Source of the DNA: Giardia intestinalis
Lineage: Eukaryota
Assembly (NCBI GenBank): GCA_000002435.2
Contig: CM018791.1
DNA length: 64,000 nucleotides
Reading direction: 5' to 3' (one strand)
Both the position numbers and the translations under genes were made by a program. Below the pieces are notes generated by a model that was not told where the DNA came from, made no database searches, and saw nothing but the letters and a program-made list of their open reading frames with translations. Shown here piece by piece: positions 3,747-41,772 of this stretch (position 1 is the first letter of the stretch; each line of letters starts with the position of its first letter).

Positions 3747-6700
3747 TCAGCAGCGAGCTGCCTTTAAGAATTGTCTGTATATGTTACTCGTACGCACAAA
3801 CGTTATGGAGTGCATGCTATAAAGGTAAGCTTCTAAAAGCCTTGCTCGTTCCCTAATAAACTCCGGCTTCCAGCCGCCCAAAGCGTAAGGCCTGTCGGGT
3901 GGGATGTCAGGCAAAGTCGCTGCAGGATAGGCCGCAGAGATTGCCGCGTGAAGCTCCTTGACCTCCGAAAAGCGGCAGCTTATGTGGAGCCTCCTGCCGT
4001 CCATGCCCAGCTCAATGTAGTAACTAATGAAGGGTCGCGACCCAGAAATAATAACAGTGCGGTGGCTCAACACCTTGACATAGAAACTGGAGCATGACGA
4101 GGTGTCGACGAACAGGGATACATGTCTGCCGCTATCCCTATGCTTGTTGCTTCTAACTATGGACGATGCAGCTCCATGGCCACTCCTTCTAATTGCACTC
4201 AGTGTCTGCACAGACGGATCATACTCAACAGAATCGGATTCTCTCTCTAGTTGAGCCTCGATGTTGTGCCGTAAAGCCTGAAGCTCCTTGTCGCGCCTTT
4301 CACGAAGGCGAATCTCACGCATCAGCTCTCTATCCAAAAGAAGGCCACTATTAGTTGTGTCTATCGCAGAAGACGTCGTAGAGTTGGACTCTATCTGCGA
4401 ATTGACAGCGAAGCGTTTCCTCTCTGCCTCAAGTTTTTGGTACTCACGGTCAGCTTTGCGATTGGCCCGTTCAATCTCCTTGTCCATCCGCAACTTCTCT
4501 TCGGCTAAAAGACGCCGCAGCTCTTTCTCTTCCTGCCGTTTCTTCTGCTCCTCAATCTTTCGAAGTTGCTCTTCACGCAATTTCTCTGCCACGGCGATGT
4601 CTTCGCTGTGAGAGGACTCTGTTAGAGATGATACGGTTGTAGACGTCTCGCGCTCCATAGGCTCCTTCTTGTCCTTCTGCTGCTTCTTAGCAATCTTCTT
4701 ATCTGCACGACGCGTCTCGGTAGTGGATTTGATGGTGGAGTGGGGCTTAGACGAAGAAGTGTCTCCGTTAATCTTCTGTGGCTTTTCTGCTGGTGCGTCT
4801 TTAGTTTCCTTAATGAGGTCGGGCTTCTTCTTGATTGCGCTAGTCTTCTTTTTGTCTGCTTCATGCTTCGGTTCCTTCTCAGGCTTCTCAAGCTTCTTCT
4901 CCTTCTTCTGCTTGGCAGCATGATGCTTTTCCTTGGCATGTTCATCCCTCTGATGCTCCGCTTTATGCTTGGTATGTGATTTGGGAAGATGCTTTGGTGG
5001 AGTGTGTAGTTCTACAACAGGTGTATTCAGCCTATCAACATACAGGCTATCACTATCCTCATTATCGACGACCAAACTTATCGCAGGAGTATCAAGCCTG
5101 GATACAACCAAAGAGTCCTCCTGCACTTCTTGTTCTGTACGTAGAGCTGCATGGCCTGTCTCGTCCTCAAGCCCTTGAGGCTCTTCCTCTTGGCAGTATA
5201 GGTCCTCCTCGGCCTGGCGCAGCATCTCCTCCTCTTCACGTCGCGCCTGCTCAAGCATCTCTGCCTCTTTGCGAGCCATTTCAATATCAAATTCATCCAG
5301 CGTCTCTTCCGGAAGCTGAAGTACCCCTTCCGGTGTAGGCTCATATTCTTGTTCGTGGACCGACACCTGCTGTTCAATATAAGGCTCTTCTTGGCATACA
5401 TCAGAAGATTGTGCTAGCCCAAACGACCCATCGAGAACGTCAGGAGTTGCGACACGATCAACAACCAAATCCTCAGAAGGCAATAGCAGGCTCTCTGGCC
5501 CATGCGAGTCAGGTGGGGCAAAGTCGTCCGGAGTACTATCACAAGGAGTGACCTGACGATGGACCGAGCTTGCACAGCTATGTTCCTCTAGGGCTGGCTG
5601 TCCCCATTGAGATATCTCGCTTTTGAGTTCATCAATAAGGTCACTGTCTTGTATTCTCTCGAATGAATCCGATTCAGTCTTGTTAGAAATGTGCTCCAGA
5701 GGTGGAGCTGTCTCCATATCAGGCAAGCTCTCCAGGTCCTTGATCTCAGGGGTGTGTACTACCGCATCCTCAATGATAGCCTCCGCCTCACGAATGCTTC
5801 GTTCTGTCTCCGGGTCTGTTTGCAGTCTGGAAACAACATCCTCAGATACGTACTCATCAGCGTTGGAGAAGCTTCGCAAAAGCTCTACCTCCTGACTGCA
5901 TTGCGGTTCCTCGCTCAGGACCTGCTGTAAAGACTCGTCACAAGGTAGAGCCATGCTTATCTCCTCGCGGCTCTCAATAGGTACTAGCTGTTGTGGTTGT
6001 ATGTCCCTGAAGACTCTGTCCGCTCCAACAGCTGCGCGCAAACGCAGAATCTGATCTATGACCAGCATCTTCCTGACTCTGCGGAGATGCTCGAGCAGAG
6101 CTGCTGAGTCTTCTGCTTGAGCGGGGTCGACGACCTCTGGCCCTTGAGCAAAGGCTGTCTGAGGACTGGGGTCAATGGGGACTGAATCAGAAGGCGTAGG
6201 TACCCTGGAGACGCATATCGGAACGGCTGAGATGTCATTGTCTGAGAACGGCATAACTGGAGTCACATCAGAAAAGGCAGCCAAATCTGGGGCAGGTGCC
6301 TCACTAATTGCGGCAGGCGTCGATGGCGCATCATCAAAGCCAAAGAAGCCGAAAGCATCATTAGGCTCGATAGCGTCGGGGACCTCAGCGGCGCCATCCG
6401 CAAGGTTAGCCCCAAAGCCGAACATTTCATCCGGCTGCTCTGCAGGAGGGTCATTGGTGTTTGTTGGTTCGAGCATGTATTGTGGCTGGACATCATCGTT
6501 GTCGGGATTCTCGGGCCTAGGGGCCTCATCCTTACAGGTGTCCACGGGCTGGTCTTGTGGCTCATCATCAATAGGCCCTGCCTCCAATTTGGGTTCGTCG
6601 TTGTGCAGTTCCTGAGGATCATTGTAAGCATTATCTTCTGGCAAGCCATAGGCATATGCGTATGGGTTGGAACCATCACCGGCCACGTAAGGGGCGCCAT

Positions 6701-6824
6701 AGTAGTCCATGTCCGCGGCCATTGCGTAGGGGTTCTGGTGGTCACCAGTGGTCTCGTCCTGGCTCGTCCCGTAGTCCCCCCATCCATAGGCTTGGTATCC
6801 GCCCTGCTCCTGATCACCGTCCAT
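3747..6824 (-). CDS. PX-domain protein with an acidic N-terminal region bearing (D/E)MFGF and DAFGFFGFDD motifs, long coiled-coil and Lys-rich segments, and a C-terminal PX domain
   Basis: C-terminal PX signature CRFSEVKELHAAISAAYPAATLPDIPPDRPYALGGWKPEFIRERARLLEAYL (R-F-S-E ... LP ... P ... RR..LE.YL). The track start at 6881 is GTG (plus cac). I place the start at the first ATG, 6824, behind cttaaaaaaATGg. QPDEMFGFGANL and NDAFGFFGFDDAP motifs lie at about 6331-6427. Confidence 0.8.
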   Translation of the reverse strand: MDGDQEQGGYQAYGWGDYGTSQDETTGDHQNPYAMAADMDYYGAPYVAGDGSNPYAYAYGLPEDNAYNDPQELHNDEPKLEAGPIDDEPQDQPVDTCKDEAPRPENPDNDDVQPQYMLEPTNTNDPPAEQPDEMFGFGANLADGAAEVPDAIEPNDAFGFFGFDDAPSTPAAISEAPAPDLAAFSDVTPVMPFSDNDISAVPICVSRVPTPSDSVPIDPSPQTAFAQGPEVVDPAQAEDSAALLEHLRRVRKMLVIDQILRLRAAVGADRVFRDIQPQQLVPIESREEISMALPCDESLQQVLSEEPQCSQEVELLRSFSNADEYVSEDVVSRLQTDPETERSIREAEAIIEDAVVHTPEIKDLESLPDMETAPPLEHISNKTESDSFERIQDSDLIDELKSEISQWGQPALEEHSCASSVHRQVTPCDSTPDDFAPPDSHGPESLLLPSEDLVVDRVATPDVLDGSFGLAQSSDVCQEEPYIEQQVSVHEQEYEPTPEGVLQLPEETLDEFDIEMARKEAEMLEQARREEEEMLRQAEEDLYCQEEEPQGLEDETGHAALRTEQEVQEDSLVVSRLDTPAISLVVDNEDSDSLYVDRLNTPVVELHTPPKHLPKSHTKHKAEHQRDEHAKEKHHAAKQKKEKKLEKPEKEPKHEADKKKTSAIKKKPDLIKETKDAPAEKPQKINGDTSSSKPHSTIKSTTETRRADKKIAKKQQKDKKEPMERETSTTVSSLTESSHSEDIAVAEKLREEQLRKIEEQKKRQEEKELRRLLAEEKLRMDKEIERANRKADREYQKLEAERKRFAVNSQIESNSTTSSAIDTTNSGLLLDRELMREIRLRERRDKELQALRHNIEAQLERESDSVEYDPSVQTLSAIRRSGHGAASSIVRSNKHRDSGRHVSLFVDTSSCSSFYVKVLSHRTVIISGSRPFISYYIELGMDGRRLHISCRFSEVKELHAAISAAYPAATLPDIPPDRPYALGGWKPEFIRERARLLEAYLYSMHSITFVRTSNIYRQFLKAARC

Positions 6825-6973
6825 TTTTTTAAGATACAGAGGCAAAAGGCATCGAGGGGCGGCACTGCGGTCGTGTTTCACTTATTTTCCCCCGGCTGTG
6901 CGGATTCCTCTGTGGCAGCCACGCTACACTAGAGTATTCTTTAACAGTCCACAGGACTCCATGTGGGAAAAAA

Positions 6974-16185: not shown

Positions 16186-19100
16186 ATGTTCGGCTATATT
16201 ACTTGTGCAACCACAGGCATCGTGTTAGATCGCCTTAAGACCGCAACGCATGTCGAGCTGCACTTCTGCATTCGCTCTTGCACAGACCCACCTAACATAA
16301 TGGCCACCTCGCCCACGGTCTTCACTCCGCTCCAGCTCAAGGACAAGCGCAAGGGCGTATACACACCAAAGATCACTGATATCACGCTGCCCATACCCCT
16401 ACTAAGCGATCTGGATGCACACGAGCTTTGTATCTCCGTTCTTCTTGCAGAGGTTGCTAAGGATGGCACCACTGCATGTGCAGACCTAGTGCATGTGTGC
16501 TCCAGAGCCACACTTGCAGAGATCCTGGCTGGCCGAACTGTAGAAGAAACAGCTCCTTTCAGCAGCCCAGCTGCTTCACCCTGCACAGACCATATTAAAC
16601 TGTCGCTCTCCTACCGCAAGCCGCTGAGAAAGGCAAACAGTGCAGCGTACGAGTGTCTACGGCTCGACACGCTCTTTATTCAATTAGCCGATATTACGCT
16701 TCCCCTCAGCAAGAGAAGCTATCTAGATGAGCAGCGGCTGTGTCTCCGTGTGTGTACCCAGACGTATGCATCGGAGTTCCCACTAGCTGAGCTTCCCAGG
16801 GATCACTCTACTAAGAGGAGCTACCAGCTGGCCTCTCCGGTACCCATTTCCATTCCCTACTCTCCTGTGATAACCTTTCAGGTTGTCTTTTTGTATAGCG
16901 TAACAGTCTCTGAAACATTTTTCCGGCTGAACGGTCTCCAGGTAGGATCGCCCTCTGCCAATTCCCACAGCTTTTGTGATTACGTGCCTATCTTTCAGTG
17001 CTCAATCAGCAGCAAGAAGAATTTATATAAGTATCAGTCTTTTGGTGTTCCGCTCTCCCTCTGCTTTCCCCCGAGTCTTATATCCTCTGACTTGGTGTCC
17101 TTTTATGACGTCATCTGTGCGTCCCTTCAATTGGCTGCAGACTCCACTCACAAGAAGGCTCCCCGGAGCCTCACAGACCTCTTAGGACACCTTAAGGAGG
17201 CTGTTATCCCACACATTTTTGAGGGCATCTTTCTGCGCGGTGAAGACATAGCCGATGTCTTTTCTCCTTACAGATCTACGATCACTCTCACAAACCATTC
17301 AAAGTCTGACTCTGCCCGCTTCAAGGCTTACGAGAAGATTCTTCAGTATGCAGGTCTCACTGACACACTGCTGGCAGCTGTCGGAAAGGACTGGACAGAT
17401 CTGGCCGTGAGAGTGGGGACAGAGGTTGGTTTTTCACAGAATGTTGCACAGAACAAGATTCTGTTCGTCGCCACTTTTCTTTTGGACATGTTTGAGCCAT
17501 ACTCTTCGTCTGCAGCAAAGCGCAACGATACCATGTACCCTGACTCCACATCAGTATCGACGCCAGGCCTCTCCGAGTCATCTTCTTTCCAACGCTTTGA
17601 GTCCCTTAATTGTGCGTCGCGGGCCCGTGACATGCTCTATGCGTTTTCGTCTAAGCGGCAGGATAAAGATGCGGCAGCCTCGTGTCTCACGATTCTTCCA
17701 ATTGAGTTTTCCTTAGCAAATGCATTAGTATCCAATAAGGTGTGCATTTACACCATCAACTTTTCCGAAGATGGCACAGATGCCAACCAAACCTTTCATG
17801 ACGCTGCCCCCATAGTCATGTCAAAGCCCGAGCTATCTGGGAGCAATCGGGGTCTCTGGCAGTTCACTTTGGAGGAAAGAAGAGATAAGGCGCAGATGAT
17901 AGCTGTCGGGCCTGTACTTAGCGCTACTCAATCGAAGGTGTCCATAAACCGCGTTCTGCTAGGATGTAAGAACAACGCAGAGCTCACCTTTGCTAACTAT
18001 CTTTGGATGCTGCCGCAAGTCCTCTTTCTTCCCGATTCTGTTTCCTCCCAGCAGATGATCCGCGATCGCGTAACAGCGTTCGAAAAGTGCGTCCTTATAG
18101 CATGTCTCTATGACTTTGAGACCGGCGCACTCCTTGCCCGTGGAAGCCTACGATTAAAGAATGTCACTGATACCTTTATTTCAGCCGCAACATCTGATCT
18201 GGACGTCGAAATAAAGCTACGGTGGTTCTATGAACAGGAGTTTTCATCATCCGTTAAGGGGGTCGAGGACACGGTTACATTTTTAGCAAGTTGCTACGGG
18301 TTTCTGAAGGAGTTGGAGCCTGCTGGTTCTCCGCATCAATCTACTCATACCTCAGCGAATGTATCCATCTGTGGCAAGAACAGTGCATGCCTGGTCACCG
18401 CTGAAAACTCTAATAGACCGACGTCTGCGCCTTCCTCTATCCACGCAGAGGCTGCCAACTGTTCGCTGGTGCGCGAAAATTCTCCAGACTGCCCCGAAGA
18501 CTTAAGTACTATTGAGTATGTTCGAGCCCAAGCGGAACCCCGACAATTCACAGAGCGGAGCGAGATAGTGAGCCAGGATGACAAGGGACTACGCACTCCT
18601 CGACTCTTATCAGGAAAGGAGATAGAGATTATTGACGGAACTATTACGTTTCAGCTTGCACCCAGTCAGAGGCAAAGTACATCAGGACCGGTCTGTGGCA
18701 TCCCTAACAACACGAAAGACGAGATAGGTGTACTCAAACAATTAATACATACGTTGCGGAAGGACCTAGATCGGCTCACTCCCAAAACCTTTAGACAAGC
18801 GGTTGCTGCAAGCCCCTCGACATACGCTGGCCTAGAGCATCCGATTTCGGAGGATCTGCGACGGAAAGTGGAGGTCTCCACCGGCTTGGTGATGCAAGAG
18901 GAAGGCACCACATATGAATTATGTCAAACAATAGCTGAAAAGTTGGATCGAAATATCCTAGCATATCTGTTAGTGGATATGGTCAAGCAGAATGTCCAGC
19001 TAAGTAAGGAGCTTGATGGTACCAGAGACAAGATCGATGTTTTGGAGAGCGCCTGTACTACAAATGGTGCGGCGCTATCTAAATTGAAGGCCCTAGTACT

Positions 19101-19491
19101 GGAGCAGGAGCAACTACTTCAATATATGGAAGCGCAAAGCAAAAAGTCGATCCATACGTCAACAGAGTCAGCAGAAAGGCTTATTGCCGTTGAAAAGGAG
19201 AATGCACGGCTCACTGAAATCTTACGGGCCGTTACAGCTTCTTTGGGTAAGGATGGTGCTGCCAAGGTCATCTCCATCTCAAGGAACCCCGCAGGGTATA
19301 CCCGAGCACAGTCATCTCCATCGCTAGATGACGGAAGAAGTGGTGTGTTGCTTAGCGTTAAGCTACCGCCCGGAAGATTGCCTCCGTTGAGTCCTGACCC
19401 AGAAGCCTTGTCTCCGCATGCTGCCAGCAAAGCTTCTAACGTTGCGAAAAGAAAGAGTCCCAGCCAGGCCGTCATCCTTTCGCGGTCCTGA
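16186..19491 (+). CDS. Hypothetical large protein (1101 aa) with a C-terminal coiled-coil segment
   Basis: Long uninterrupted ORF whose ATG lies behind a textbook A/T initiator. Coiled-coil-like heptads run ~18900-19250 (LKALVLEQEQLLQYMEAQ...). No recognisable catalytic motif. Confidence 0.6.
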   Translation: MFGYITCATTGIVLDRLKTATHVELHFCIRSCTDPPNIMATSPTVFTPLQLKDKRKGVYTPKITDITLPIPLLSDLDAHELCISVLLAEVAKDGTTACADLVHVCSRATLAEILAGRTVEETAPFSSPAASPCTDHIKLSLSYRKPLRKANSAAYECLRLDTLFIQLADITLPLSKRSYLDEQRLCLRVCTQTYASEFPLAELPRDHSTKRSYQLASPVPISIPYSPVITFQVVFLYSVTVSETFFRLNGLQVGSPSANSHSFCDYVPIFQCSISSKKNLYKYQSFGVPLSLCFPPSLISSDLVSFYDVICASLQLAADSTHKKAPRSLTDLLGHLKEAVIPHIFEGIFLRGEDIADVFSPYRSTITLTNHSKSDSARFKAYEKILQYAGLTDTLLAAVGKDWTDLAVRVGTEVGFSQNVAQNKILFVATFLLDMFEPYSSSAAKRNDTMYPDSTSVSTPGLSESSSFQRFESLNCASRARDMLYAFSSKRQDKDAAASCLTILPIEFSLANALVSNKVCIYTINFSEDGTDANQTFHDAAPIVMSKPELSGSNRGLWQFTLEERRDKAQMIAVGPVLSATQSKVSINRVLLGCKNNAELTFANYLWMLPQVLFLPDSVSSQQMIRDRVTAFEKCVLIACLYDFETGALLARGSLRLKNVTDTFISAATSDLDVEIKLRWFYEQEFSSSVKGVEDTVTFLASCYGFLKELEPAGSPHQSTHTSANVSICGKNSACLVTAENSNRPTSAPSSIHAEAANCSLVRENSPDCPEDLSTIEYVRAQAEPRQFTERSEIVSQDDKGLRTPRLLSGKEIEIIDGTITFQLAPSQRQSTSGPVCGIPNNTKDEIGVLKQLIHTLRKDLDRLTPKTFRQAVAASPSTYAGLEHPISEDLRRKVEVSTGLVMQEEGTTYELCQTIAEKLDRNILAYLLVDMVKQNVQLSKELDGTRDKIDVLESACTTNGAALSKLKALVLEQEQLLQYMEAQSKKSIHTSTESAERLIAVEKENARLTEILRAVTASLGKDGAAKVISISRNPAGYTRAQSSPSLDDGRSGVLLSVKLPPGRLPPLSPDPEALSPHAASKASNVAKRKSPSQAVILSRS

Positions 19492-19547: not shown

Positions 19548-21347
19548 ATGTCTAATAGGTTTACCACCCAGACGGTGTTGGACTCCGTCCTCAAGAGCCG
19601 GGGCCTGTCCAGCTCAGACACGGAAATGCATGAACTCCCTGCTAGGTGGTCAGCAGTGGCGTCACACCTGTCTTCTTTTTTGCAGTGCGAAAATAACCCG
19701 CTGGAGTGCTACACAGCGATGTATGAGGCGGTCATAAGCCAGCCATGTCTCTCCTTCGAGCAGGACTGCCAGTGTGGGTCGTGCTCAGAGCGCGTGACGG
19801 AGTTCTTCCATTTGGGACCTTGTTCTCACAAGCTCTGTAAAGCCTGCCTCAGAAAGATGTTTGACCAACTCAATGATGAATGTCTGGTCTGCAATGAACC
19901 TATTAGAGAGCTCGCCTTCTGCAAACAGCCTGGCTCCATGCCTCCTCCACCGGCGCTTGTGCCGCCGCCTCTTGCTCTTCCTACCAAGGCCACCCCTGCC
20001 CCTGCACCCGCCTGCGAAGAGTGCCCTGTCTTTGCTTCTATTCTTAAAAAGAATGGTCTGCCACCAGACACGTCCGGAATTGTCCATGGATACAAGAAAA
20101 TCAAACAGATTAATTTACTGGAAGATGACTACATATCGTCTCCTCCTACGGGACAGACCCTTATTCCGGAGGAGGACTTGATATACCTCAGGGACTATAT
20201 GAAGTTTCAGTTCCTACACTTCTTCGAGGAAGTCGATGCCAGCGAGACTATCTTTTGCGCATGGAAGGGCGGCGACGCGGCTGAGCACCAACTCGAGTGT
20301 CCTCTCCGCGAAGATACGTGCAAGAATAAGGCACTTGGTTGCAGCTTTATGCAGCCATACATCATTGTAGCGTATCACGGGATAAACTGCGAGAATATAT
20401 GCCTCTACGAAAGTCAGCCGTGCCCTCTATGCAATAAGACAGTACTGAACAAGGACATGTACACCCATGAGGTCACTTGCTCTAAGAAGCTCATAGAAGA
20501 GCATAAGGAGAAGGTCAAGTCTTCGCAGAAAGAGTACATCGCTGGGGCTCAAGCTACTTTCGCTGCTGAGGCCTCCAAGGAAAACTCTCCTATGAAGAGC
20601 GCGTCTCCCAACAATCCGAATAGCAATCCAAGCATCGTCTCTCCTGAGAACAGGTCCGATGATGACATCAAGGGTATCACGATTAGGGATGCCTGCGAAA
20701 ACATGAACGTGCTGGGAGAGATGTATTGCGACCTTGTGACAGCTGCTCGCCCAGATATATACTCTAGCACCTCCAGCGCTGTCAACTCTTCTACTGACGT
20801 AAGGGGAAGCAGGGAGCTTTTACGCGATCCAACGGAGATTGTTGTGATAGGGCCTGCTGAGCTCTCACCTGAACAGGTCAAAGACATAAAAAGAACCAAG
20901 TCTCCCAAGTCTCCGAAGAGGTCTGGTGCATCGGAAAAGAACGATAACTCGAGGAAAGAAAGGAAGGGAACATCAGAGGCGCGTGTCTTATCTTACGAGG
21001 TCTGCTCCACTGGGTCTGGCCATCCGTTTGTGGTCTACAAGATCGAGCTCCCAAGCCAGGACGGCGGAGAGAGCGTAGTCATCCATAAGCGAATGAAGGA
21101 GATCAAGGCGTTCCACAAGCGCCTGCAGCGCAACTTTCCAAGTATCACGCTGCCCAAGCTTCCGCAGGACAGGCCTTGGGCACTCGGAGGGAACAAGCTT
21201 AAGTTTGTTCAGGAGCGCTCCAGACTTTTGGAGGCATATTGTGGAGACATCAATCACAATGCGATGATATATAAATCGAGGATTTATAAAGACTATATTA
21301 ACGAGCAATGCGCTTATGTGCCGATCACTTATGCTCTTAAAGAGTAG
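19548..21347 (+). CDS. RING-finger + TRAF-type zinc-finger + C-terminal PX-domain protein
   Basis: RING-like CQCGSCSERV...GPCSHKLCKACL...CLVCNEPI (about 19764-19908). TRAF-ZnF-like CPLREDTCKNKALGCSF...INCENICLYESQPCPLCNKTV...HEVTC. PX domain YKIELPS...KRMKEIKAFHKRLQRNFPSITLPKLPQDRPWALGGNKLKFVQERSRLLEAYC. ATG behind taagtaaaactttATG. Confidence 0.8.
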   Translation: MSNRFTTQTVLDSVLKSRGLSSSDTEMHELPARWSAVASHLSSFLQCENNPLECYTAMYEAVISQPCLSFEQDCQCGSCSERVTEFFHLGPCSHKLCKACLRKMFDQLNDECLVCNEPIRELAFCKQPGSMPPPPALVPPPLALPTKATPAPAPACEECPVFASILKKNGLPPDTSGIVHGYKKIKQINLLEDDYISSPPTGQTLIPEEDLIYLRDYMKFQFLHFFEEVDASETIFCAWKGGDAAEHQLECPLREDTCKNKALGCSFMQPYIIVAYHGINCENICLYESQPCPLCNKTVLNKDMYTHEVTCSKKLIEEHKEKVKSSQKEYIAGAQATFAAEASKENSPMKSASPNNPNSNPSIVSPENRSDDDIKGITIRDACENMNVLGEMYCDLVTAARPDIYSSTSSAVNSSTDVRGSRELLRDPTEIVVIGPAELSPEQVKDIKRTKSPKSPKRSGASEKNDNSRKERKGTSEARVLSYEVCSTGSGHPFVVYKIELPSQDGGESVVIHKRMKEIKAFHKRLQRNFPSITLPKLPQDRPWALGGNKLKFVQERSRLLEAYCGDINHNAMIYKSRIYKDYINEQCAYVPITYALKE

Positions 21348-21426: not shown

Positions 21427-23535
21427 ATGGAGGAGTTTTTTGGGTTTTCAGACGCGCCGGTTGCTCCTGGCCACGTCTCCGAGGAGGCTCTGTTCTTTGG
21501 CTTTGATGACGCCTCCGCTAACCAGCCGCAGCCCCCCGTCTCCATTCCATTTCCAGTTATCAACCAAGTCGCGACCATCCCAAGGTTTCAGGAGTTCCAA
21601 GAGTTCCAGGAGTATGACTCGCCAGAGCTTCGGGCAGCCAGGCAACCCAAGTTCCTGGATCCAGCACTATTTGTGGGCCCTGGGAGAGAGGACGTCATTC
21701 ATGATGTGGTGATAGATGAGGCAAAGTACGACTTCGGCTACGACCTTGACTACCTGCGAGAAACCACAGATGAGATGAAGACCGAAGAGGACGAGGAGGA
21801 CATAATAAGTAGGCTTCCCTACGGCTTTTCCTCCAACTACACATACAAGGACGATATGGCAGATCTTATGCGTAGCAGCCCTGTGAAAGACATTGTTCTC
21901 CCCCGGGTTGGTGTCACTGTAGAGTGCTCCGACAGTGACATGGAAGCAGAATTCAACCGTCTGCAAGCTATAGACTTCAACGAGAAGCGCAAGGACATAG
22001 AACAGATGCTTCGCATTCGTAGAGAGCAGGAGCACCAGAGAAGGCAAGAGGAAGAGCAAGAACGACTGCGGCAAGAGGCCCTTAAAGCTCAGAGCTCAGT
22101 TCCATCCCGGATCCCCTCTATTCCGGCCGCCGCCCCATCTGCCACTATTGCCTCTGATAGAGCAGTCGGACCTGCTGCCGTTCCAAGCCTTCCTCCCCTG
22201 TCTCAGCCAATGGTTGACGTTGCTCCGCAGCCAGAGCCCCAGCCAATTATGGATCTCCTGATAGCTCCAAAGGCAGTGGAGGCGGTGTATGCCCCGTTAC
22301 AAGCTACCCCTGTACAGCCTATCCATACCCAATCTTCCATTTTAGTGCCATCAGCTCCACCAGCGGCTACTCTGGCCCCTCAAGTATGCTCTATTGAGCA
22401 ACCTCCCTCAGAGGATCCTCAGCTAGAGGAAATGTTCGGATTCCAGTCACAACCCGATATTAGTTACTCCCCAGAAGTCAAGGATCTAGATAAGATAGAG
22501 CCAGACTTGACCGCAGATCCTGCCACAAATCCGGTTATCGTGGACCAGCCTGTCTCAAAGTCGTGGAGCGCAAGAGGATCGATACAGCAGCAGCTAGACA
22601 ATCTACAGAGCGAAATAAAGCAACTAGAGCAAGACTCCATGTTTTCTAAAGAAGATAGAAAGCGGAGCAGACACGCAGAAGCCCGTAAATATCTCGAAAC
22701 CAGAACATATACAGACAACTACGACGTTTTCAGACCGTCGCACCATCTACAGAAGTACTATGCAGCGAAGAAGCCAAAACCAAAGCCAAAGGAAACCATT
22801 TATTCCCCATACTCAGAGACGGAGCTATCGAACCAGCGCATGCAAGTGCGAGCAGAGCTGGAGGCTCAGAAGCACAAAGAGCAGCGGGAGCGCAACTACT
22901 ACGAGAAAATTGAGATCAAAAGGCTAACAGCCATGTACTCCAAGCTCGAATCTGAATTAACCGTCAAAGCCATCAGTGAGGAGCTTGCACAAGAAAAACG
23001 TCAGGAATTTGAAAAGTACTTCAAGAGCGCGTCCCTCCTTGAAAAGAGCTCTGACATGTACACCAGCACACACGATGATAAGACCATACGCATACAGGTA
23101 TCTGAGCATAACGCTTTGCATCTCCCCCGGTCCCTCTTCTTCACCCCTGATGGGAAGTATAAAAACTACGTTAGATACCTGGACTATAGGAAGGTTTTCG
23201 ACCGCTTCACGCACACGCAGGTCCTTATGTTCATATTCGCGGTGTCCTCGCAGGAGCGAAAGTTGAAGTGCATTTCCAAGACTTACGAGGACTTTCATGT
23301 CCTTCACAAGGAGCTTGTGGGGGCCTTCGGGTACTCAGCAGTACCTGGGCTTCCCTCCTTCCGATCCATGAACATGGGTGGCGGTAGACATGAGGTCATT
23401 CATGACACTCAAAAGAGACTAACCAAGTACCTGACTGAAATCAACAACGTCCAGGCTCTGCGCACATCCGCCATCTACAGGAGCTTCCTCAAGCACCAGG
23501 ACCTCAACTTTTTCCAGGGGATGCATCGCCACTAG
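21427..23535 (+). CDS. PX-domain protein with N-terminal acidic FFGF motifs (MEEFFGFSDAP, LFFGFDDAS, EEMFGFQSQPD) and a central coiled coil
   Basis: C-terminal PX-like segment KTYEDFHVLHKELVGAFGYSAVPGLPSFRSM...QKRLTKYLTEI. ATG behind tttaaaaacaatcgccATG. Second gene of a head-to-tail run of three. Confidence 0.8.
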   Translation: MEEFFGFSDAPVAPGHVSEEALFFGFDDASANQPQPPVSIPFPVINQVATIPRFQEFQEFQEYDSPELRAARQPKFLDPALFVGPGREDVIHDVVIDEAKYDFGYDLDYLRETTDEMKTEEDEEDIISRLPYGFSSNYTYKDDMADLMRSSPVKDIVLPRVGVTVECSDSDMEAEFNRLQAIDFNEKRKDIEQMLRIRREQEHQRRQEEEQERLRQEALKAQSSVPSRIPSIPAAAPSATIASDRAVGPAAVPSLPPLSQPMVDVAPQPEPQPIMDLLIAPKAVEAVYAPLQATPVQPIHTQSSILVPSAPPAATLAPQVCSIEQPPSEDPQLEEMFGFQSQPDISYSPEVKDLDKIEPDLTADPATNPVIVDQPVSKSWSARGSIQQQLDNLQSEIKQLEQDSMFSKEDRKRSRHAEARKYLETRTYTDNYDVFRPSHHLQKYYAAKKPKPKPKETIYSPYSETELSNQRMQVRAELEAQKHKEQRERNYYEKIEIKRLTAMYSKLESELTVKAISEELAQEKRQEFEKYFKSASLLEKSSDMYTSTHDDKTIRIQVSEHNALHLPRSLFFTPDGKYKNYVRYLDYRKVFDRFTHTQVLMFIFAVSSQERKLKCISKTYEDFHVLHKELVGAFGYSAVPGLPSFRSMNMGGGRHEVIHDTQKRLTKYLTEINNVQALRTSAIYRSFLKHQDLNFFQGMHRH

Positions 23536-23611: not shown

Positions 23612-26600
23612 ATGGAGGACATTGCCTACACCGACGGATACGCTGCGCAGTACGGAGATAATTATGCATATGATGGGTATGGCTATGGTGGTGACCTGGC
23701 TGTGGGAGATTACAATCCGTACGGAACGGACTATGGTTATGATGCAGGAGGCTACGACTATGGTGCCGGGTACGGTGGGTATGGGAATCAAGAGACTGGA
23801 TATGGCGATCAGACATATGGATATGGTGAGCCTGCTGAGCAACCGCAAGACAGTTTATCGCTTAAGCTGGACGAGCCGAAGCCGTTTACTGAGCAAGACG
23901 ATGGGAGGTCCCTCGTCGTCCGTACTGATGCGGCGTCTGTGTCCATGGATCCTTTTAGTGCGCCCATAGATACAGTGACAGAGCCCATAGGTTCACAGAC
24001 GCACACGAGCTCCGCTTTTCCACCTGTCTCTCAGGACTTGCTGAACTCTATCAGGGTCCAGCAAGAGACTAGTGGAAACCTGAGTAAGTCTCCAAGCAAA
24101 ATCTCAAGCAGGCCTGCCTCTGCTAGACTTGACGAGCTTGATAAGGTAATCGAAGAAGATGCAGAACAGCTTAATAGGGAGGCCAAAACAGATACTCACG
24201 TTACTGGTGCTGCCCCCGATACTAGCGATATGTTTGGCTTTACTGACCAACCGGCGGCACCAACAGCTACCGAAGAGCCTGTCGCAACTGCTGGTGACGA
24301 CATGTTTGGATTTGGGCTAGAAAGTGACGCGCACGATGCAACGGTTCAGCCCCCAGTTGAAGATGCAGGGCCTGCTCTACCTGATAAAGAAGCTCCCTCC
24401 ACTGAGGCCGAAGACGATATGTTTGGCTTCGCCACATCTCCTCAGGAGACCATAGCCAGCCCTCCAGCAGGCTCCACCGCCCCTGCTGCTGAGCCTGTTG
24501 ACGACATGTTTGGCTTCACCGATCCTGCCGTCGAATCAGCGGCTACTGCAGAGCCAGGAACAATGGAGGGCGATGATATGTTTGGATTTGGCCCCTCAGA
24601 AAGCACACCTAAAGATCCTGACACTGATGCATCTGCAGTAGCTAAGGATGTAACGGTGGACGCTCAAGATGCTGCCGATGATATGTTCGGTTTTGATGGA
24701 GCGGGCTCCCCTGCAGAGGCTCCTGCACAATCAACCGAAGCAGTAGCAAGCCCAGTTGCTGACTTGGAGACGGACAGCATGTTTGGCTTTGATTCTCCGC
24801 CAGCCCCAGCAGATAATACTACTACTGTGCCTGTGGATGATTCGGCGGATGACCTGTTCGGATTTGGGCCTTCCACTTTAGATGCACAAGGTGAGCCCGC
24901 CCAAGATGCTCAGCCAGATATTCAAGATGTGGCACAAGTCTCCGCTGACAGCATGTTTGGCTTTGACTTGCCAGCTGATGCCTCGGCAACTGTGGAGCCA
25001 TCAACTACCGGCCTTGCTACTGAGAAGCCAGAGGATTCTCCTGTCGATGACATGTTCGGCTTTTCTCCAAACGAAGCAGCAGCTACAGCCAAGTCAGATG
25101 AGGATCAAGAGATAACGCCGGTGAACACCAAGACTTTAGACGAACCATTGTCAGTAGCAAATGATTACACCCAACCAACAGCTGGGCCCTCAGATGACAT
25201 GTTCGGCTTTGGAAACAGCGCAGATCTTCCTCAAACAGATTCTGTACCCCACTCTGGAGCCACGGCTGATAGCATGTTTGGATTTGACTCTGTACCAGCA
25301 ACAGGGGCCTCGGTAGAACCACCAACAGAGACGCCAGAGCTTCACGACGCATCTCAGACACAACCTACTTTGGACATGCCAACAATTCCAGAGCACATCC
25401 CAACTATAGAGGATAACCAAACGGACCTGTCACATGAGAGTCAAAATGAGAGTCAAGTTGCAAGTGAAGAGTCTGATCAGCTAAGAGAGACCAATGAGAC
25501 GCTGGAAGGAGAGGAAATGAATAAGGAACTGGCACAAGAGCCCGCTGTAGAGGATATGTTTGGCTTTGGGGATGCATCAGCGCCAGTGGAGGATTCCTCA
25601 ACAGAAAAGGCCACTGAAAGCCACCCAACTGAGCCACCTAATTTAGCAGATCTTCCACCTCCTGTGTCTGCATCATCACTGCTTCCCGTGCAGACACTTG
25701 AGTCTGCGAAGCAATCCGCAAGAGCTGCAACTACCCCAGTGGCCGATATGGCCATTGATATAGATTCTATGATCTCGGCTGCACTAGTTCCACAGCAACC
25801 CTCCCCCGCTCCTGAACAGAAGGTCGAGGACCAAGTTCTTGACGAATCCTCGCCTAACGTGATAACTGCAGAGCTTCCTCCCATTGTTGTGAAGGGATCT
25901 TTAGAAGAGGCCAACGACAAGTCTGCCGCAGAGTCGCAACATGAACCAGTAGAGCTCTCGGAGGACCGTGACCTCAGTAAAGATATCGAGCTGGTTGCTC
26001 AAGATCCTCTACCGGCCGAGGAGGATACGCAGGATATTTTTGTTGAGCCAGCTGTGCCAGTTGAAGCTCTAGAAAGGTTGGCGATCAGCGAAACGTTCAT
26101 CAAGCTCCAGGAGGAGCTTCAATTTACATACCTGATGCCAGAGCCTAACCGCGAAGAACTAGACAAGCTCCAGATGACTGATCATGAGCAGCAGCTTATT
26201 CAACTTAAGGACGAAGCGGAGCGGCTACAGAGAGAGAATAAGGTGCTCGCAGGCAGAAGTGCGGCTCCCAGGCATCTCCACCCTAACGAGTTTGATAGCA
26301 AATCTATCTCAGTTAGCTTCTTCGAGGGTCTTCTGAATGAGCCCACCCACAGTGATGGCATATCCCTAACGACTGGGGAAGAGCTTCGGCTCTTGGCGAT
26401 TCTGGAGCAGGGAGACTACGAAGCACTTGATGCTCTTCACGGCATGTCTCCAGAGGAGCTTCAGTTAATGGAGCAACGAGAACGCGAGTTCAATTTGAAG
26501 CTCAAGGAACTCACCGACCGCCGAGACGAGCTGTTGTACAAGGATGATACGGAGGCTTTAAAACTCATTGAGGAAGAGATCTGGGCCTTTGTAGACGCTG

Positions 26601-39330: not shown

Positions 39331-41772
39331 ATGCTGAGACCATGCGAAGGGCATGTGGCCTCCACTGAGTGCGCGTACTGCTTCTTGAACAGGTACAATA
39401 GCCAGGGGCTCTACCTCTGCATGCACTGCAACTTCTGCGCCTGCCTGGATCACGTTAACATTCATCAGGAAAAGACCGGTCATGTGCACTATTTACATAT
39501 CCTTTATACCCTCAAGAACAAAGAGGGGAACATAACTGCACGTGATAGGGTGGACATGCTGCTTAACAACAAGAACGAAGAGATTGTTAATCTTGAGACG
39601 AAGATTTATCAGTTTCCCGGTAGACAGGCTGTGCTATCTGTCCCCGACGAAATGATGGACTGCTACCTTTTCTTACTTGATGGCGAGGACGACCCTGACA
39701 GAACGTTGCTTAAAAAGAAGCCAGGCGCGTCTCTATCATCCCTATCCGACCACGCCCAGGTCTACGATCAACTAGCTTCTTCATGCGAGCATGTGATTGA
39801 GATACTTACCTCTCAACCGCCTGCGTATAGAGCTCACCACAACTGCTTCTCATCATGTGCAAGTTGTGACGTGTCAAACAACCTTTGGCTCTGCCTGTAC
39901 TGTGGCCACGTTGGCTGTGGGCGCGCTCAGGCATATAGTGAGCTGGGCGGGAACGGCCATGCTCTTGCACACTATGAGTCGAACTGCGATCATTGCGTGG
40001 CTCTAAAACTCTCATCTCTCAGTGCATCTGTTTGTGAAGCATACTGTTACAACTGTGATGTATCTATCGATTCAATCTTTACTGTGCCAGACATGAGATC
40101 TATGCTGCAAAGCTATCTAGAGTGCACATATGGTCACGATGTTGCTGATTTAATGAATCGTACAGATGGGGCCTGTCTGTCTCTTCAGCAGCAAACGGAG
40201 AGGGTAGACGAGTTGATAGATAGATATGGGCTTGCAAAAAGTATGCAGAGTTCTCAGATCTCGCTGTTGGGCGTGCTCTCTGGCTTTAGAAATACCGGCA
40301 ACACGTGTTATGCTAGTGCTGTCGTTTCATGTCTTAGAGCGGCAGGTGTCTTTCCCAGACGGACCAAGGAGCTCGAGATTGAGGCGCTCAATCACTATCA
40401 CACGTGCAGTTTGTTAGATCCCATCGACTGCTCCATCTGCCAACTGTATAGGCTATACGTTTGGGGATTTCGCACAATAAACTACAGTGCCACAGATCTC
40501 CTGGCCCATGGATACCTGGAGAATGACCTGCCATACTTTATCATGTATTCAGACCCCCACATCACTCCTTTGATCAGATTGCTTACGCCATACTTTGCCA
40601 CTGACGAAAATGTTGGGTTTCAGCACGATTCAGCTGATTACCTCAACAATCTATTAGACTTTTTCGACCACCATAGACCTGATCTAGTTAGAAAGGTGAC
40701 TCTCCCCGCGATGAGGCGTGAACTAAGGTGTGCATCGTGCATGGGACACGTTTACAAGCCAGAAAATCAGCACGAATGGGGGATCTCCTTGACATGCTCT
40801 CTCTTCGACACCGTTACAGAATGCGAAGTGGGAGCAGAGGTGTCGATGCAGAGCTCTCTTAGAAGCGAGATAGGGGGCTATGCTAGTACGATAGATGGAT
40901 TGCGCTGCCCTCTGTGCTCAGCCATCAACGTATGTGGCGAGGTGCCGAAGCTATTGCTGTCATCGTCATATCTCGCCAAGACCGAGAGCGCCTTTCCAGA
41001 AATACTGATCGTAAAAGCAATTAGGCAGTATTTTGATGTATCAAGGATGCGGTCATATAAACTTTTGACTAGATTGATAGACACTGACAAAATCAAAATC
41101 AATTTCTTAGTTAGTACACATACAGAAGAAGACGAAGAGAAGTGCAACACCGAAGCGTGGAGACAAGCCCTGGTGGCCATGGAATCGGGAGCCATGATCC
41201 CAGGTGTTCAGCAGAACCAACGTACAAATGTGGATGAACAACTGAGTGCCATGATGGACATGATGGTCGCAGACAGAAAGACATGTATGAAGGCTCTGAG
41301 ACAGTGCAACGGGGATATAAGATTGGCAGTGGATGCAATACTCAACAACGAAGTGGCAGATGATGATCAGCACGATGCACATCACGAACTTCCCCTTCCT
41401 CAGGCTCCAGCACCTGCGATTGCGAAAGAGAGAATTGCAGAGGCAGTGCACAATCTTCGTCAAGAACAAGAGATAGACTCAGCAATGAACGCAGCAGGTG
41501 TGTCCTATGCAGAAAGAGATGCGATGAACCTTACATACAAATTGGTGGCCTTTGTGCTACACCGGGGAACAGAGCTCGACAGTGGGCACTATCTCGCCTA
41601 CGTGCGAGCCAGCTTATTTTCGGAGGAGGATCTTAGCGAGATGCAGGTGCGTGAGCTTGTCAACAGAGACCAAGATTGGATGGTTTTCAACGACGAAGAG
41701 GTCACTCTTACACAGGATCCCCCGGTGCAAATGGCATACATATATTTCTATAAGAGGATGGCTAAGTGCTAA
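39331..41772 (+). CDS. Ubiquitin carboxyl-terminal hydrolase, USP5/isopeptidase-T-like (ZnF-UBP x2 + USP catalytic domain + UBA)
   Basis: Cys box GFRNTGNTCYASAVVSCL. His box YKLVAFVLHRGTELDSGHYLAYV. ZnF-UBP CLYCGHVGCGRAQ...HALAHYE. UBA-like TCMKALRQCNGDIRLAVDAILNNE. Confidence 0.85.
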   Translation: MLRPCEGHVASTECAYCFLNRYNSQGLYLCMHCNFCACLDHVNIHQEKTGHVHYLHILYTLKNKEGNITARDRVDMLLNNKNEEIVNLETKIYQFPGRQAVLSVPDEMMDCYLFLLDGEDDPDRTLLKKKPGASLSSLSDHAQVYDQLASSCEHVIEILTSQPPAYRAHHNCFSSCASCDVSNNLWLCLYCGHVGCGRAQAYSELGGNGHALAHYESNCDHCVALKLSSLSASVCEAYCYNCDVSIDSIFTVPDMRSMLQSYLECTYGHDVADLMNRTDGACLSLQQQTERVDELIDRYGLAKSMQSSQISLLGVLSGFRNTGNTCYASAVVSCLRAAGVFPRRTKELEIEALNHYHTCSLLDPIDCSICQLYRLYVWGFRTINYSATDLLAHGYLENDLPYFIMYSDPHITPLIRLLTPYFATDENVGFQHDSADYLNNLLDFFDHHRPDLVRKVTLPAMRRELRCASCMGHVYKPENQHEWGISLTCSLFDTVTECEVGAEVSMQSSLRSEIGGYASTIDGLRCPLCSAINVCGEVPKLLLSSSYLAKTESAFPEILIVKAIRQYFDVSRMRSYKLLTRLIDTDKIKINFLVSTHTEEDEEKCNTEAWRQALVAMESGAMIPGVQQNQRTNVDEQLSAMMDMMVADRKTCMKALRQCNGDIRLAVDAILNNEVADDDQHDAHHELPLPQAPAPAIAKERIAEAVHNLRQEQEIDSAMNAAGVSYAERDAMNLTYKLVAFVLHRGTELDSGHYLAYVRASLFSEEDLSEMQVRELVNRDQDWMVFNDEEVTLTQDPPVQMAYIYFYKRMAKC

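Follow-up and report, generated by a model that had tools for sequence, protein, structure and literature searches.

The Giardia vacuole coat protein GlPXD3 carries a TRAF-like module of RING and zinc fingers in front of its PX domain

The window analyzed here comprises 64,000 nucleotides of Giardia intestinalis DNA (assembly GCA_000002435.2, contig CM018791.1). The protein encoded by the ORF under study (Table 1) matches UniProt A8B341 / XP_001710118.1 exactly. A8B341 is GL50803_16596 of G. intestinalis WB, named GlPXD3 (Table 1 in PMC7058353), and the published GlPXD3 cloning primers match positions 19551-19574 (plus strand) and 21320-21344 (minus strand). The gene is thus already known: it encodes the previously studied endocytic-vacuole coat protein GlPXD3. 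The interval 19764-21340, to which the original prediction referred, corresponds to codons 73-598 of the ORF. Four PX genes are present in the window. As had been noticed before, GlPXD3 is followed directly downstream by two genes for PX proteins, which carry 3 and 13 copies of FGF motifs. A RING/finger module is present in GlPXD3 alone of the four.

Table 1. Position and definition of the GlPXD3 gene and its segments in the window
Feature	Position	Strand	Extent	Basis or characteristics
Whole gene GlPXD3	19548..21347	+	599 aa plus stop	ORF list, uninterrupted ORF
N-terminal helical region	19548..19763	+	aa 1-72	before the RING; predicted helical, low-confidence model
C3HC4 RING finger	19764..19910	+	aa 73-121	ligands C76, C79, C92, H94, C97, C100, C112, C115
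Proline-rich linker	19923..20012	+	aa 126-155	12 Pro in 30 residues
Conserved middle region	20013..20255	+	aa 156-236	no family match (Pfam)
Three TRAF-type C2HC zinc fingers	20256..20480	+	aa 237-311	patterns and PDB profile matches
Long helix after finger 3	20448..20564	+	aa 301-339	DSSP on both AlphaFold models
Ser/Pro/Lys-rich spacer	20565..20981	+	aa 340-478	composition, poor conservation
PX domain	20982..21344	+	Pfam core aa 509-586, conserved block aa 479-599	

On lipid arrays, the MBP-fused PX domain of GlPXD3 bound PI(3)P and showed weaker binding to PI(5)P (PMC7058353); hence the lipid-binding test recommended along with the original prediction had already been done. In published imaging, tagged GlPXD3 covers the cytoplasmic face of the peripheral endocytic vacuoles as a continuous coat. 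One older study located tagged GL50803_16596 in the cytosol (PMC3044749). According to the published interactome, clathrin, AP2 and dynamin copurify with GlPXD3, and so do E1, a USP deubiquitinase, UPL-1, a BRO1-domain protein, VPS4b and a second RING protein, GL50803_17119. E1 and UPL-1 were found with other baits too. The same is true for ubiquitin, which is absent from the GlPXD3 table, and no E2 is present in the GlPXD3 interactome. A deubiquitinase gene lies 18 kb downstream of GlPXD3 (39331..41772); by name it is not the USP of the interactome, as it encodes 'hydrolase 14' (A8B354) and the copurified protein is 'hydrolase 4' (GL50803_14460).

The PX domain is the sole domain given for GlPXD3 in the GlPXD papers, and an in-silico analysis cited in a review found no further domains (PMC6115752). 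The words 'RING' and 'ubiquitin' do not occur in the main text of PMC7058353; the legend of its Fig 1A, however, names 'Zn-binding residues'. The RING goes unmentioned in a comparative survey of PX and FYVE proteins (PMC2837644), and 16596 appears neither in the text nor in the supplement of the 2020 inventory of the Giardia ubiquitin system with its 71 RING proteins (PMC7029713). Relative to this literature, the module of RING and TRAF-type fingers in the N-terminal half of GlPXD3 appears to be new. The gene is known and real; its TRAF-like, PX-anchored architecture was overlooked.

Residues 76-115 fit the cross-brace C3HC4 pattern C-x2-C-x(9-39)-C-x(1-3)-H-x(2-3)-C-x2-C-x(4-48)-C-x2-C exactly, which none of 20,000 shuffled sequences did. 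Pfam zf-RING_5 scored 29.0 bits on the isolated N-terminus and 24.3 bits on the full protein (cut-off 27.9), and zf-C3HC4_3 reached 24.5 bits (cut-off 27). With a RING profile, 120 distinct solved sequences were matched at E<=0.1 (best 3.2e-7), and all 60 of the 60 matches listed were RING-type domains. In the alignments, all eight ligands coincide with those of RNF8 and ICP0. An AlphaFold model of aa 66-322, calculated from six sequences, is confident only for the RING, for finger 3 with the following helix and for a short middle segment; the RING fold predicted in it matches TRAF6, RNF8 and c-Cbl. The zinc ligands are kept in four G. intestinalis lineages and in Giardia muris, and in the metagenomic relative P0054 the RING His is replaced by Glu. 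Judged by ligand spacing and predicted fold, aa 76-115 belong to the RING finger superfamily. The original prediction had been staked on Cys/His spacing compatible with a cross-brace RING, and it stands in this point because the spacing fits.

Three zinc fingers follow further downstream. Finger 1 (C237..H247-x3-C251) lacks its second Cys in Giardia, which is present in P0054. Finger 2 (C258-x6-C265-x11-H277-x7-C285) and finger 3 (C292-x2-C295-x11-H307-x3-C311) both fit the TRAF-type unit C-x(2-6)-C-x(11-12)-H-x(3-7)-C, and the finger ligands are invariant in the six orthologs. Pfam zf-TRAF (15.0 bits, E 0.04) and zf-TRAF_2 (14.4 bits, E 0.055) stayed below the cut-off of 27, with similar scores for the orthologs; TRAFD1-XIAF1_ZnF and XAF1_C matched weakly in this region. 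When a finger profile made from the six sequences was compared with 177,635 PDB sequences, the top three matches were all TRAF-type zinc-finger structures with the ligands in register: TRAFD1/FLN29 (2d9k, 2.2e-4), FBXO30 (2yre, 1.7e-3) and TRAF6 (5vo0, 3.7e-3). In the AlphaFold model of aa 66-322, finger 3 and the following helix have pLDDT values of 73-87, fingers 1 and 2 values below 50. C156-x2-C159 was considered as an extra zinc site, but this idea was dropped, since only one Cys is present there in G. muris.

The PX domain scored 36.4 bits in Pfam (cut-off 21.6, E 7.7e-9), compared to 36.3 bits for G. muris and 45.0 bits for P0054. It aligns with the PX domains of SNX27 and CISK. In PX domains, PI3P contact is made by R-[YF], by PxxP followed by a basic residue, and by a second Arg in helix 2. 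Of these residues GlPXD3 has R515, P536-x2-P539, R542 and R557, of which R515 and R557 are invariant in the orthologs. The position of the stacking aromatic after R515 is occupied by Met (Met516) in all six orthologs. Hence the PX domain, which had been called canonical, is nearly so: both Arg residues and the PxxP are in place, the Tyr or Phe is not. The Pfam calls recommended for the whole protein turned out differently for each part, with PX above the cut-off, the RING above it on the isolated N-terminus only, and zf-TRAF below it.

The fingers and the PX domain are the most conserved segments of GlPXD3, and the PX block is the best conserved of all (48% identity to G. muris). For aa 1-72, the G. 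intestinalis lineages share 71-93% identity, and identity with G. muris is 32%; phmmer alignments with RNF8 and RING1B reach into aa 43-75, and it is possible that aa 1-72 act as dimerization helices. The proline-rich linker is the least conserved segment, with 30-63% identity among the G. intestinalis lineages, and the middle region shows 79-91%; pLDDT is about 80 for its aa 206-225 and lower elsewhere in it. The counterpart of the helix after finger 3 is far longer and rich in E, R and K in G. muris and P0054. This helix may mediate oligomerization. For the end of the helix together with the spacer (aa 316-478), the G. intestinalis lineages share 51-65% identity, and identity with G. muris is 12%. 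The spacer has pLDDT values below 50 in a full-length AlphaFold model, which was based on a four-sequence alignment and was unusable overall (mean pLDDT 30.5).

Zinc ligands and domain order are common to the four G. intestinalis lineages, G. muris (TNJ28570.1) and P0054, the His-to-Glu change in P0054 excepted. Thus the predicted architecture of RING, TRAF-type fingers and PX exists and has been kept in G. muris and one metagenomic relative. It is also as unusual as had been supposed: in a HMMER scan of 1.84 billion representative proteins, only these relatives were matched beyond the PX domain. Word-index protein searches with a full-length profile of the six sequences and with an N-terminal profile brought up known Giardia sequences, a frameshifted fragment and a MORN-RING protein without relationship to GlPXD3, and nothing else. 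No confirmed relative emerged when metagenomes were scanned with P0054 or the family profile. Among the sequences searched, no organism other than Giardia and one uncultured relative has the scaffold of RING, fingers and helix joined to PX. P0054 is encoded on a 4.7-kb metagenomic contig with a GC content of 0.60, where it adjoins a SEP-domain gene.

With its RING and TRAF-type fingers in the front half, GlPXD3 becomes a candidate for a lipid-anchored ubiquitin ligase or a ligase-like scaffold. From RING-E2 complexes it is well established which features make up the surface that holds the E2: a hydrophobic residue in C-x-[ILV]-C, a hydrophobic residue in the central helix, a Pro after Cys7 and a basic or Asn linchpin after Cys8. 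The loop-1 position, which is Ile (C-x-I-C) in RNF8, ICP0 and TRAF6, is Ser78 in GlPXD3 and A/S/S/K/N in the orthologs. The central-helix position is Met104 (M/M/M/L/I in the orthologs) and thus remains hydrophobic. Cys7 is followed by Leu113 (L/S/S/Y/P) and Cys8 by Asn116 (K/K/K/D/G), the linchpin being Asn or Lys within G. intestinalis. Of the four positions only the one in the helix is conserved, and the conserved E2-binding surface expected of a catalytic RING E3 is not seen. Because the loop-1, post-Cys7 and linchpin residues vary, no constraint is visible on the usual surface for E2 binding and ubiquitin priming. Given the changed loop-1 residue and the two variable priming positions, stand-alone E3 activity of GlPXD3 is plausible from its sequence, not established. 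The original prediction is therefore supported in part. The architecture holds, but the designation 'E3 ligase' is a deduction from domains that lacks support in the form given: Ser78 stands in place of the E2-contact Ile, Pro and linchpin are unconserved, and the interactome contains no E2.

The best interpretation, to which we give an even chance, is that GlPXD3 is a TRAF-like protein in which PX replaces MATH and whose vacuole-anchored RING/finger module takes part in ubiquitin ligation. The PX domain would concentrate the module on vacuole membranes. There it would join in the ubiquitin ligation of cargo or of the copurifying clathrin, AP2, dynamin and ESCRT-associated machinery. This would be ubiquitination controlled by location, by analogy with the yeast PI3P-targeted RING ligase Pib1. 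Since the RING lacks the canonical Ile that holds the E2, two modes of action are probable for it. It could use a non-canonical E2 interface, or, as reported for TRAF2, TRAF3 and TRAF5, it could serve in a RING dimer or adaptor as the half that does not bind E2, with GL50803_17119 as one possible partner.

A RING that is non-catalytic or heterodimeric has to be taken seriously as an alternative. The RING and the TRAF fingers could be zinc-stabilized modules for protein interaction and oligomerization, by which the PX-anchored protein would assemble itself into the vacuole coat and dock clathrin, AP2 and dynamin without any transfer of ubiquitin. Non-catalytic RINGs are known from BARD1, MAT1, arenavirus Z and TRAF2/3, and the RINGs of BARD1, MAT1 and Z protein are among the sequence matches of GlPXD3. 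In line with this, the Ile, Pro and linchpin positions are polar or variable while the zinc ligands stay, and even the loss of the His ligand is tolerated in P0054. The continuous coat around the vacuoles and the interactome without E2 point in the same direction. However, the closest matches in sequence and structure are the active E3 RINGs of ICP0, RNF4, RNF8, TRAF6 and c-Cbl, the hydrophobic helix position is conserved, and ubiquitin-system and ESCRT-associated proteins copurify with GlPXD3. We regard a purely non-catalytic role as less likely than participation in ubiquitin ligation.

GlPXD3 could also be the unit of a larger, TRAF-like lattice, although this seems improbable to us: the RING would dimerize, the helix after the fingers would oligomerize, PX would bind PI(3)P, and the resulting lattice coat would tile the vacuole membrane and write or read ubiquitin, or both, in place of the flat coat of ESCRT-0/Hrs and clathrin. 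If this were true, Giardia and its relatives would have a lineage-specific way of sorting cargo at a static endocytic organelle. Similarly improbable is a role mainly as a ubiquitin reader, in which a UBZ-like finger 3 would bind ubiquitinated cargo on PI(3)P membranes beside clathrin and stand in for ESCRT-0. Hrs (ESCRT-0) combines FYVE, ubiquitin binding and clathrin, and to our knowledge Giardia has neither ESCRT-0 nor ESCRT-I. GlPXD3 does bind PI(3)P and copurifies with clathrin, the BRO1 protein and VPS4b, and finger 3 of P0054 scored 27.4 bits on Pfam zf_UBZ (cut-off 25.6) and matched XAF1_C as well. Yet the isolated P0054 fragment remained under the cut-off (23.6 bits), and finger 3 of Giardia gives no zf_UBZ match. 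Furthermore, the UBZ4 fingers of Rad18 and WRNIP1 bind ubiquitin via the Asp of H-x-D-x-C, a position that is Val in all orthologs of GlPXD3, and ubiquitin, found with other baits, is missing from the GlPXD3 table. That the Cys/His clusters arose by chance or that two genes were joined in the ORF by artefact, as the sub-threshold RING scores on the full-length protein and the far lower zf-TRAF scores might suggest, is refuted as far as sequence analysis goes by the shuffles, by ligands invariant (apart from the RING His in P0054) across orthologs down to 25-31% identity, by G. muris and P0054, where a single ORF likewise holds the domains in this order, and by the cloning and expression of the full ORF by others with primers matching both ends.

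The peripheral vacuoles are the only endocytic and lysosomal organelles of Giardia, and clathrin is static there. With a RING/TRAF-finger module on a protein that coats these vacuoles, PI(3)P identity and ubiquitin signaling in Giardia can be linked in a concrete way that is open to testing, which may bear on how cargo is selected at this organelle. The six Giardia PX proteins have so far been treated as lipid readers joined to 'domains of unknown function', and the module accounts for two thirds of a protein that had been described by its last 120 residues alone. In a wider sense, GlPXD3 exemplifies a TRAF-like scaffold of RING, fingers and helix in which a lipid-binding PX domain takes the place that the receptor-binding MATH domain has in metazoan TRAFs.

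Among known systems, the TRAF family and in particular TRAF6 has the same order of modules, i. e. a C3HC4 RING followed by C2HC TRAF-type fingers and a helical segment, and for the RING as well as the fingers TRAF6 ranks among the best matches in sequence and structure. True TRAFs, however, end in MATH/TRAF-C and GlPXD3 ends in PX; no MATH domain was matched in Pfam at E<=1. The RING and fingers of TRAF6 abut, whereas in GlPXD3 they are separated by a 110-residue insert of proline-rich and unassigned sequence. Besides, one Cys is lacking in finger 1, and Ser replaces the E2-contact Ile of TRAF6. GlPXD3 is thus TRAF-like, but not a TRAF. Metazoan TRAF4 binds phosphoinositides through its MATH/TRAF domain. 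It resembles GlPXD3 as a RING/TRAF-finger protein that is brought to membranes via phosphoinositides, yet GlPXD3 uses the separate and unrelated PX fold to this end. The fingers of TRAFD1/FLN29 and FBXO30 share the elements H-x3-C-P, C-x(n)-G-C, H and C-x2-C-x11-H-x3-C in register with GlPXD3; TRAFD1 and XAF1 have no RING, FBXO30 has an F-box, and none of the three has a PX domain.

The lipid-binding domain of yeast Pib1 is a FYVE domain. It is called PX in a study in which Pib1 acts on cargo en route to the vacuole (PMC2810449). As in GlPXD3, a PI(3)P-binding domain puts a RING on endocytic membranes. In GlPXD3, though, this domain is PX (Pfam found no FYVE), the RING is N-terminal so that the order is reversed, and TRAF-type fingers are present. 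The resemblance is functional only, with no sequence relationship seen beyond the RING superfamily. The PX domain itself is related to those of SNX27, SNX11 and CISK and of the Giardia paralogs. The acidic FGF repeats that occur in GlPXD1, 2 and 4 are absent from GlPXD3, which shares with GlPXD1, 2, 4, 5 and 6 the same organelle and the same clathrin-centered interactome.

The ORF of GlPXD3 is uninterrupted in the ORF list of the window, and its 599 aa product is identical at every residue to UniProt A8B341 (XP_001710118.1) of Giardia intestinalis WB. A8B341 is GL50803_16596, named GlPXD3 by Cernikova, Faso & Hehl 2020 (Table 1, PMC7058353), and both HA-GlPXD3 cloning primers of that study match the window, the forward one immediately 3' of the ATG and the reverse one in the final codons. 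Thus the original prediction, whose span of 19764-21340 corresponds to codons 73-598, describes a known, experimentally studied gene. The products of the two ORFs 3' of it are identical to A8B343 and A8B344, i.e. GL50803_7723 (GlPXD1) and GL50803_16595 (GlPXD2) in the same Table 1 (PMC7058353).

Positions in the window of GlPXD3, its neighbours and related features
Feature	Position	Strand	Description
GlPXD4	3747..6881	-	PX gene
GL50803_007721	16186-19491	+	upstream neighbour of GlPXD3, 1101 aa
GlPXD3	19548-21347	+	PX gene
Forward cloning primer	19551-19574	+	HA-GlPXD3 (PMC7058353)
R-M pair	21090-21095		aa 515-516 of GlPXD3
Reverse cloning primer	21320-21344	-	HA-GlPXD3 (PMC7058353)
GlPXD1	21427-23535	+	PX gene
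GlPXD2	23612-29047	+	PX gene
A8B354	39331-41772	+	deubiquitinase, 'ubiquitin carboxyl-terminal hydrolase 14'

All three predicted domains were recovered. The PX domain matches Pfam at aa 509-586 (36.4 bits vs a cut-off of 21.6), its closest solved relatives being the PX domains of CISK, SNX27 and SNX11. Three C2HC units were found by pattern inspection at aa 237-311. In Pfam this region gave weak matches (zf-TRAF, E 0.04; zf-TRAF_2, 0.055; TRAFD1-XIAF1_ZnF, 3.4). A finger profile built from the six orthologs and run against the whole PDB sequence set had TRAF-type finger structures at ranks 1-3: TRAFD1/FLN29 (2.2e-4), FBXO30 (1.7e-3) and TRAF6 (3.7e-3). With moderate confidence we assign the units to the TRAF-type fingers. 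The second Cys of finger 1 is absent in Giardia and present in P0054, a metagenomic eukaryotic ortholog in which all three fingers are complete.

Database searches showed how narrowly this arrangement is distributed. The clusters returned by a word-index search, at 90% identity, numbered only four: assemblages A/E, assemblage B and two further lineages at ~70% identity. No RING or finger ligand varies among these. When 1.84 billion representative proteins were scanned with HMMER, 17 matches had E<=0.001, and those extending past the PX domain came from three lineages only: G. intestinalis (with a frameshifted fragment among its matches), Giardia muris (TNJ28570.1, 660 aa) and P0054 (750 aa). 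The latter two have the same order as GlPXD3, namely RING, three fingers, long charged helix and PX. Across all six sequences the conserved finger ligands and 7/8 RING ligands are invariant, the exception being His94, which is Glu in P0054. The best conserved segments are the fingers and PX (44% and 48% identity to G. muris); conservation is lowest in the Pro-rich linker and in the Ser/Pro/Lys spacer. Ligand conservation and the common domain order in distant orthologs thus exclude both chance Cys/His clusters and a gene-model fusion. RING and finger modules alike are conserved, with their structure intact. P0054 (L001 446-2698, JGI metagenome 3300010163) is the only non-Giardia protein with this order. 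It has a ~200-residue E/R/K-rich helix in place of the short Giardia helix, and its contig (GC 0.60) carries an adjoining SEP-domain gene.

The lipid binding proposed for the PX domain had already been published: fused to MBP, it favours PI(3)P in vitro, with weaker binding of PI(5)P (PMC7058353). It does so even though the lipid-contact pair R-Y/F reads R-M in 6/6 orthologs; at the sequence level, Met after Arg515 is a signature of the GlPXD3 family. HA-GlPXD3 coats the entire cytoplasmic face of peripheral vacuoles in 'hive-like' fenestrated patterns and copurifies with clathrin heavy chain, AP2, dynamin, a pseudokinase, a bacterial-type dynamin-like protein, a SNARE and NSF (PMC7058353). 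Supplementary Table S3 of that paper also lists E1, UPL-1, the BRO1-domain protein GL50803_103709, VPS4b, the USP GL50803_14460 and a 'putative zinc-RING', GL50803_17119 (5-6 exclusive spectral counts); no E2 is listed.

The domain column of PMC7058353 gives PX only for GlPXD3, and the text of that paper uses neither 'RING' nor 'ubiquitin'. Nor is 16596 present, in text or supplement, in the 2020 inventory of the Giardia ubiquitin system (82 E3s, 71 with RING; PMC7029713), and the Pfam annotation precomputed for the WB-type cluster has PX alone. In the texts of PMC7058353 and the inventory the RING/TRAF-finger module thus appears unreported, although the Fig 1A legend of PMC7058353 mentions 'Zn-binding residues'. 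The gene was already known; its N-terminal architecture appears to have been overlooked.

The most likely interpretation is that the PX domain gathers a TRAF-like scaffold of RING, fingers and helix at vacuole membranes, and that this scaffold would take part there in ubiquitin ligation. The E2 surface of the RING was compared with RNF8 and ICP0 and across orthologs at four positions, which we take, from established knowledge of RING-E2 structures, to be E2/ubiquitin-priming contacts. Only the helix position is conserved.

E2-surface positions of the RING in GlPXD3 and its orthologs
Position	GlPXD3	Orthologs
Ile of C-x-I-C	Ser78	Ala, Ser, Ser, Lys, Asn
Pro after Cys7	Leu	Leu, Ser, Ser, Tyr, Pro
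Linchpin after Cys8	Asn	Lys, Lys, Lys, Asp, Gly
Hydrophobic helix position	Met104	Met, Met, Met, Leu, Ile

Where the first of these positions is polar, a RING often lacks catalytic activity or serves as a partner, as in BARD1, MAT1, arenavirus Z and TRAF2/3. Because of this and the non-conserved surface, we put the chances that GlPXD3 contributes to ubiquitin ligation, by itself or within a RING dimer, at about even. The same observations, with Ser78, Leu and Asn non-conserved, speak for a purely structural or oligomerising module, a less likely but serious alternative. That GlPXD3 reads ubiquitin is very unlikely; the idea comes from finger 3 of P0054, which matches Pfam zf_UBZ (27.4 bits vs a cut-off of 25.6), a match that Giardia finger 3 does not reproduce. 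Should the RING of GlPXD3 itself be unable to hold an E2, GL50803_17119 is a candidate heterodimer partner. Of the phosphoinositide-targeted E3 ligase originally predicted, which is partly supported, the RING/TRAF-finger/PX architecture and the PI(3)P binding stand; enzymatic activity is unproven, and the non-conserved E2 surface is a specific ground for doubt.

Four of the six PX genes of Giardia lie in the window within 29 kb, and GlPXD3, GlPXD1 and GlPXD2 are in tandem with spacers of 56-79 bp. This suggests local duplication of an exon-less PX cassette, followed by N-terminal divergence. As predicted, the two genes immediately downstream carry FGF motifs: acidic-x-[MLFA]-FGF occurs 13 times in GlPXD2 (aa 208-650) and three times each in GlPXD1 (aa 5, 24, 337) and GlPXD4 (aa 154-180); the same count found none in GlPXD3. 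Since GlPXD1 and GlPXD2 are strong reciprocal clathrin/AP2 partners (PMC7058353), the motif is a candidate peptide for binding clathrin or AP2; it differs from the classical clathrin-box, DPF/W and FxDxF motifs. The end of GL50803_007721 lies 56 bp upstream of the GlPXD3 ATG, and Pfam gave no match to its product at E<0.1. Other genes in the window include a VSP, ankyrin/NEK-type kinases and the zf-UBP deubiquitinase A8B354 (UCH domain, two zf-UBP fingers), 18 kb downstream of GlPXD3. Its identity with the interactome USP GL50803_14460 was rejected, as the names differ, and its closeness to GlPXD3 is probably coincidental.

Among known systems, GlPXD3 resembles the TRAFs in how its N-terminal modules are ordered; it has no MATH domain, however, and thus is not a TRAF family member. 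The PI3P-binding domain of yeast Pib1 is a FYVE domain. This RING ligase is held on PI3P membranes and aids cargo in reaching the vacuole (PMC2810449); that paper calls the lipid domain PX and, given the FYVE assignment, is therefore not a source to cite for an earlier PX-RING protein. GlPXD3 shares with Pib1 the lipid-directed placement of a RING, as proposed here, yet without a FYVE domain it is not a Pib1 family member. It belongs to the PX and RING superfamilies and is a PX-anchored, TRAF-like RING protein.
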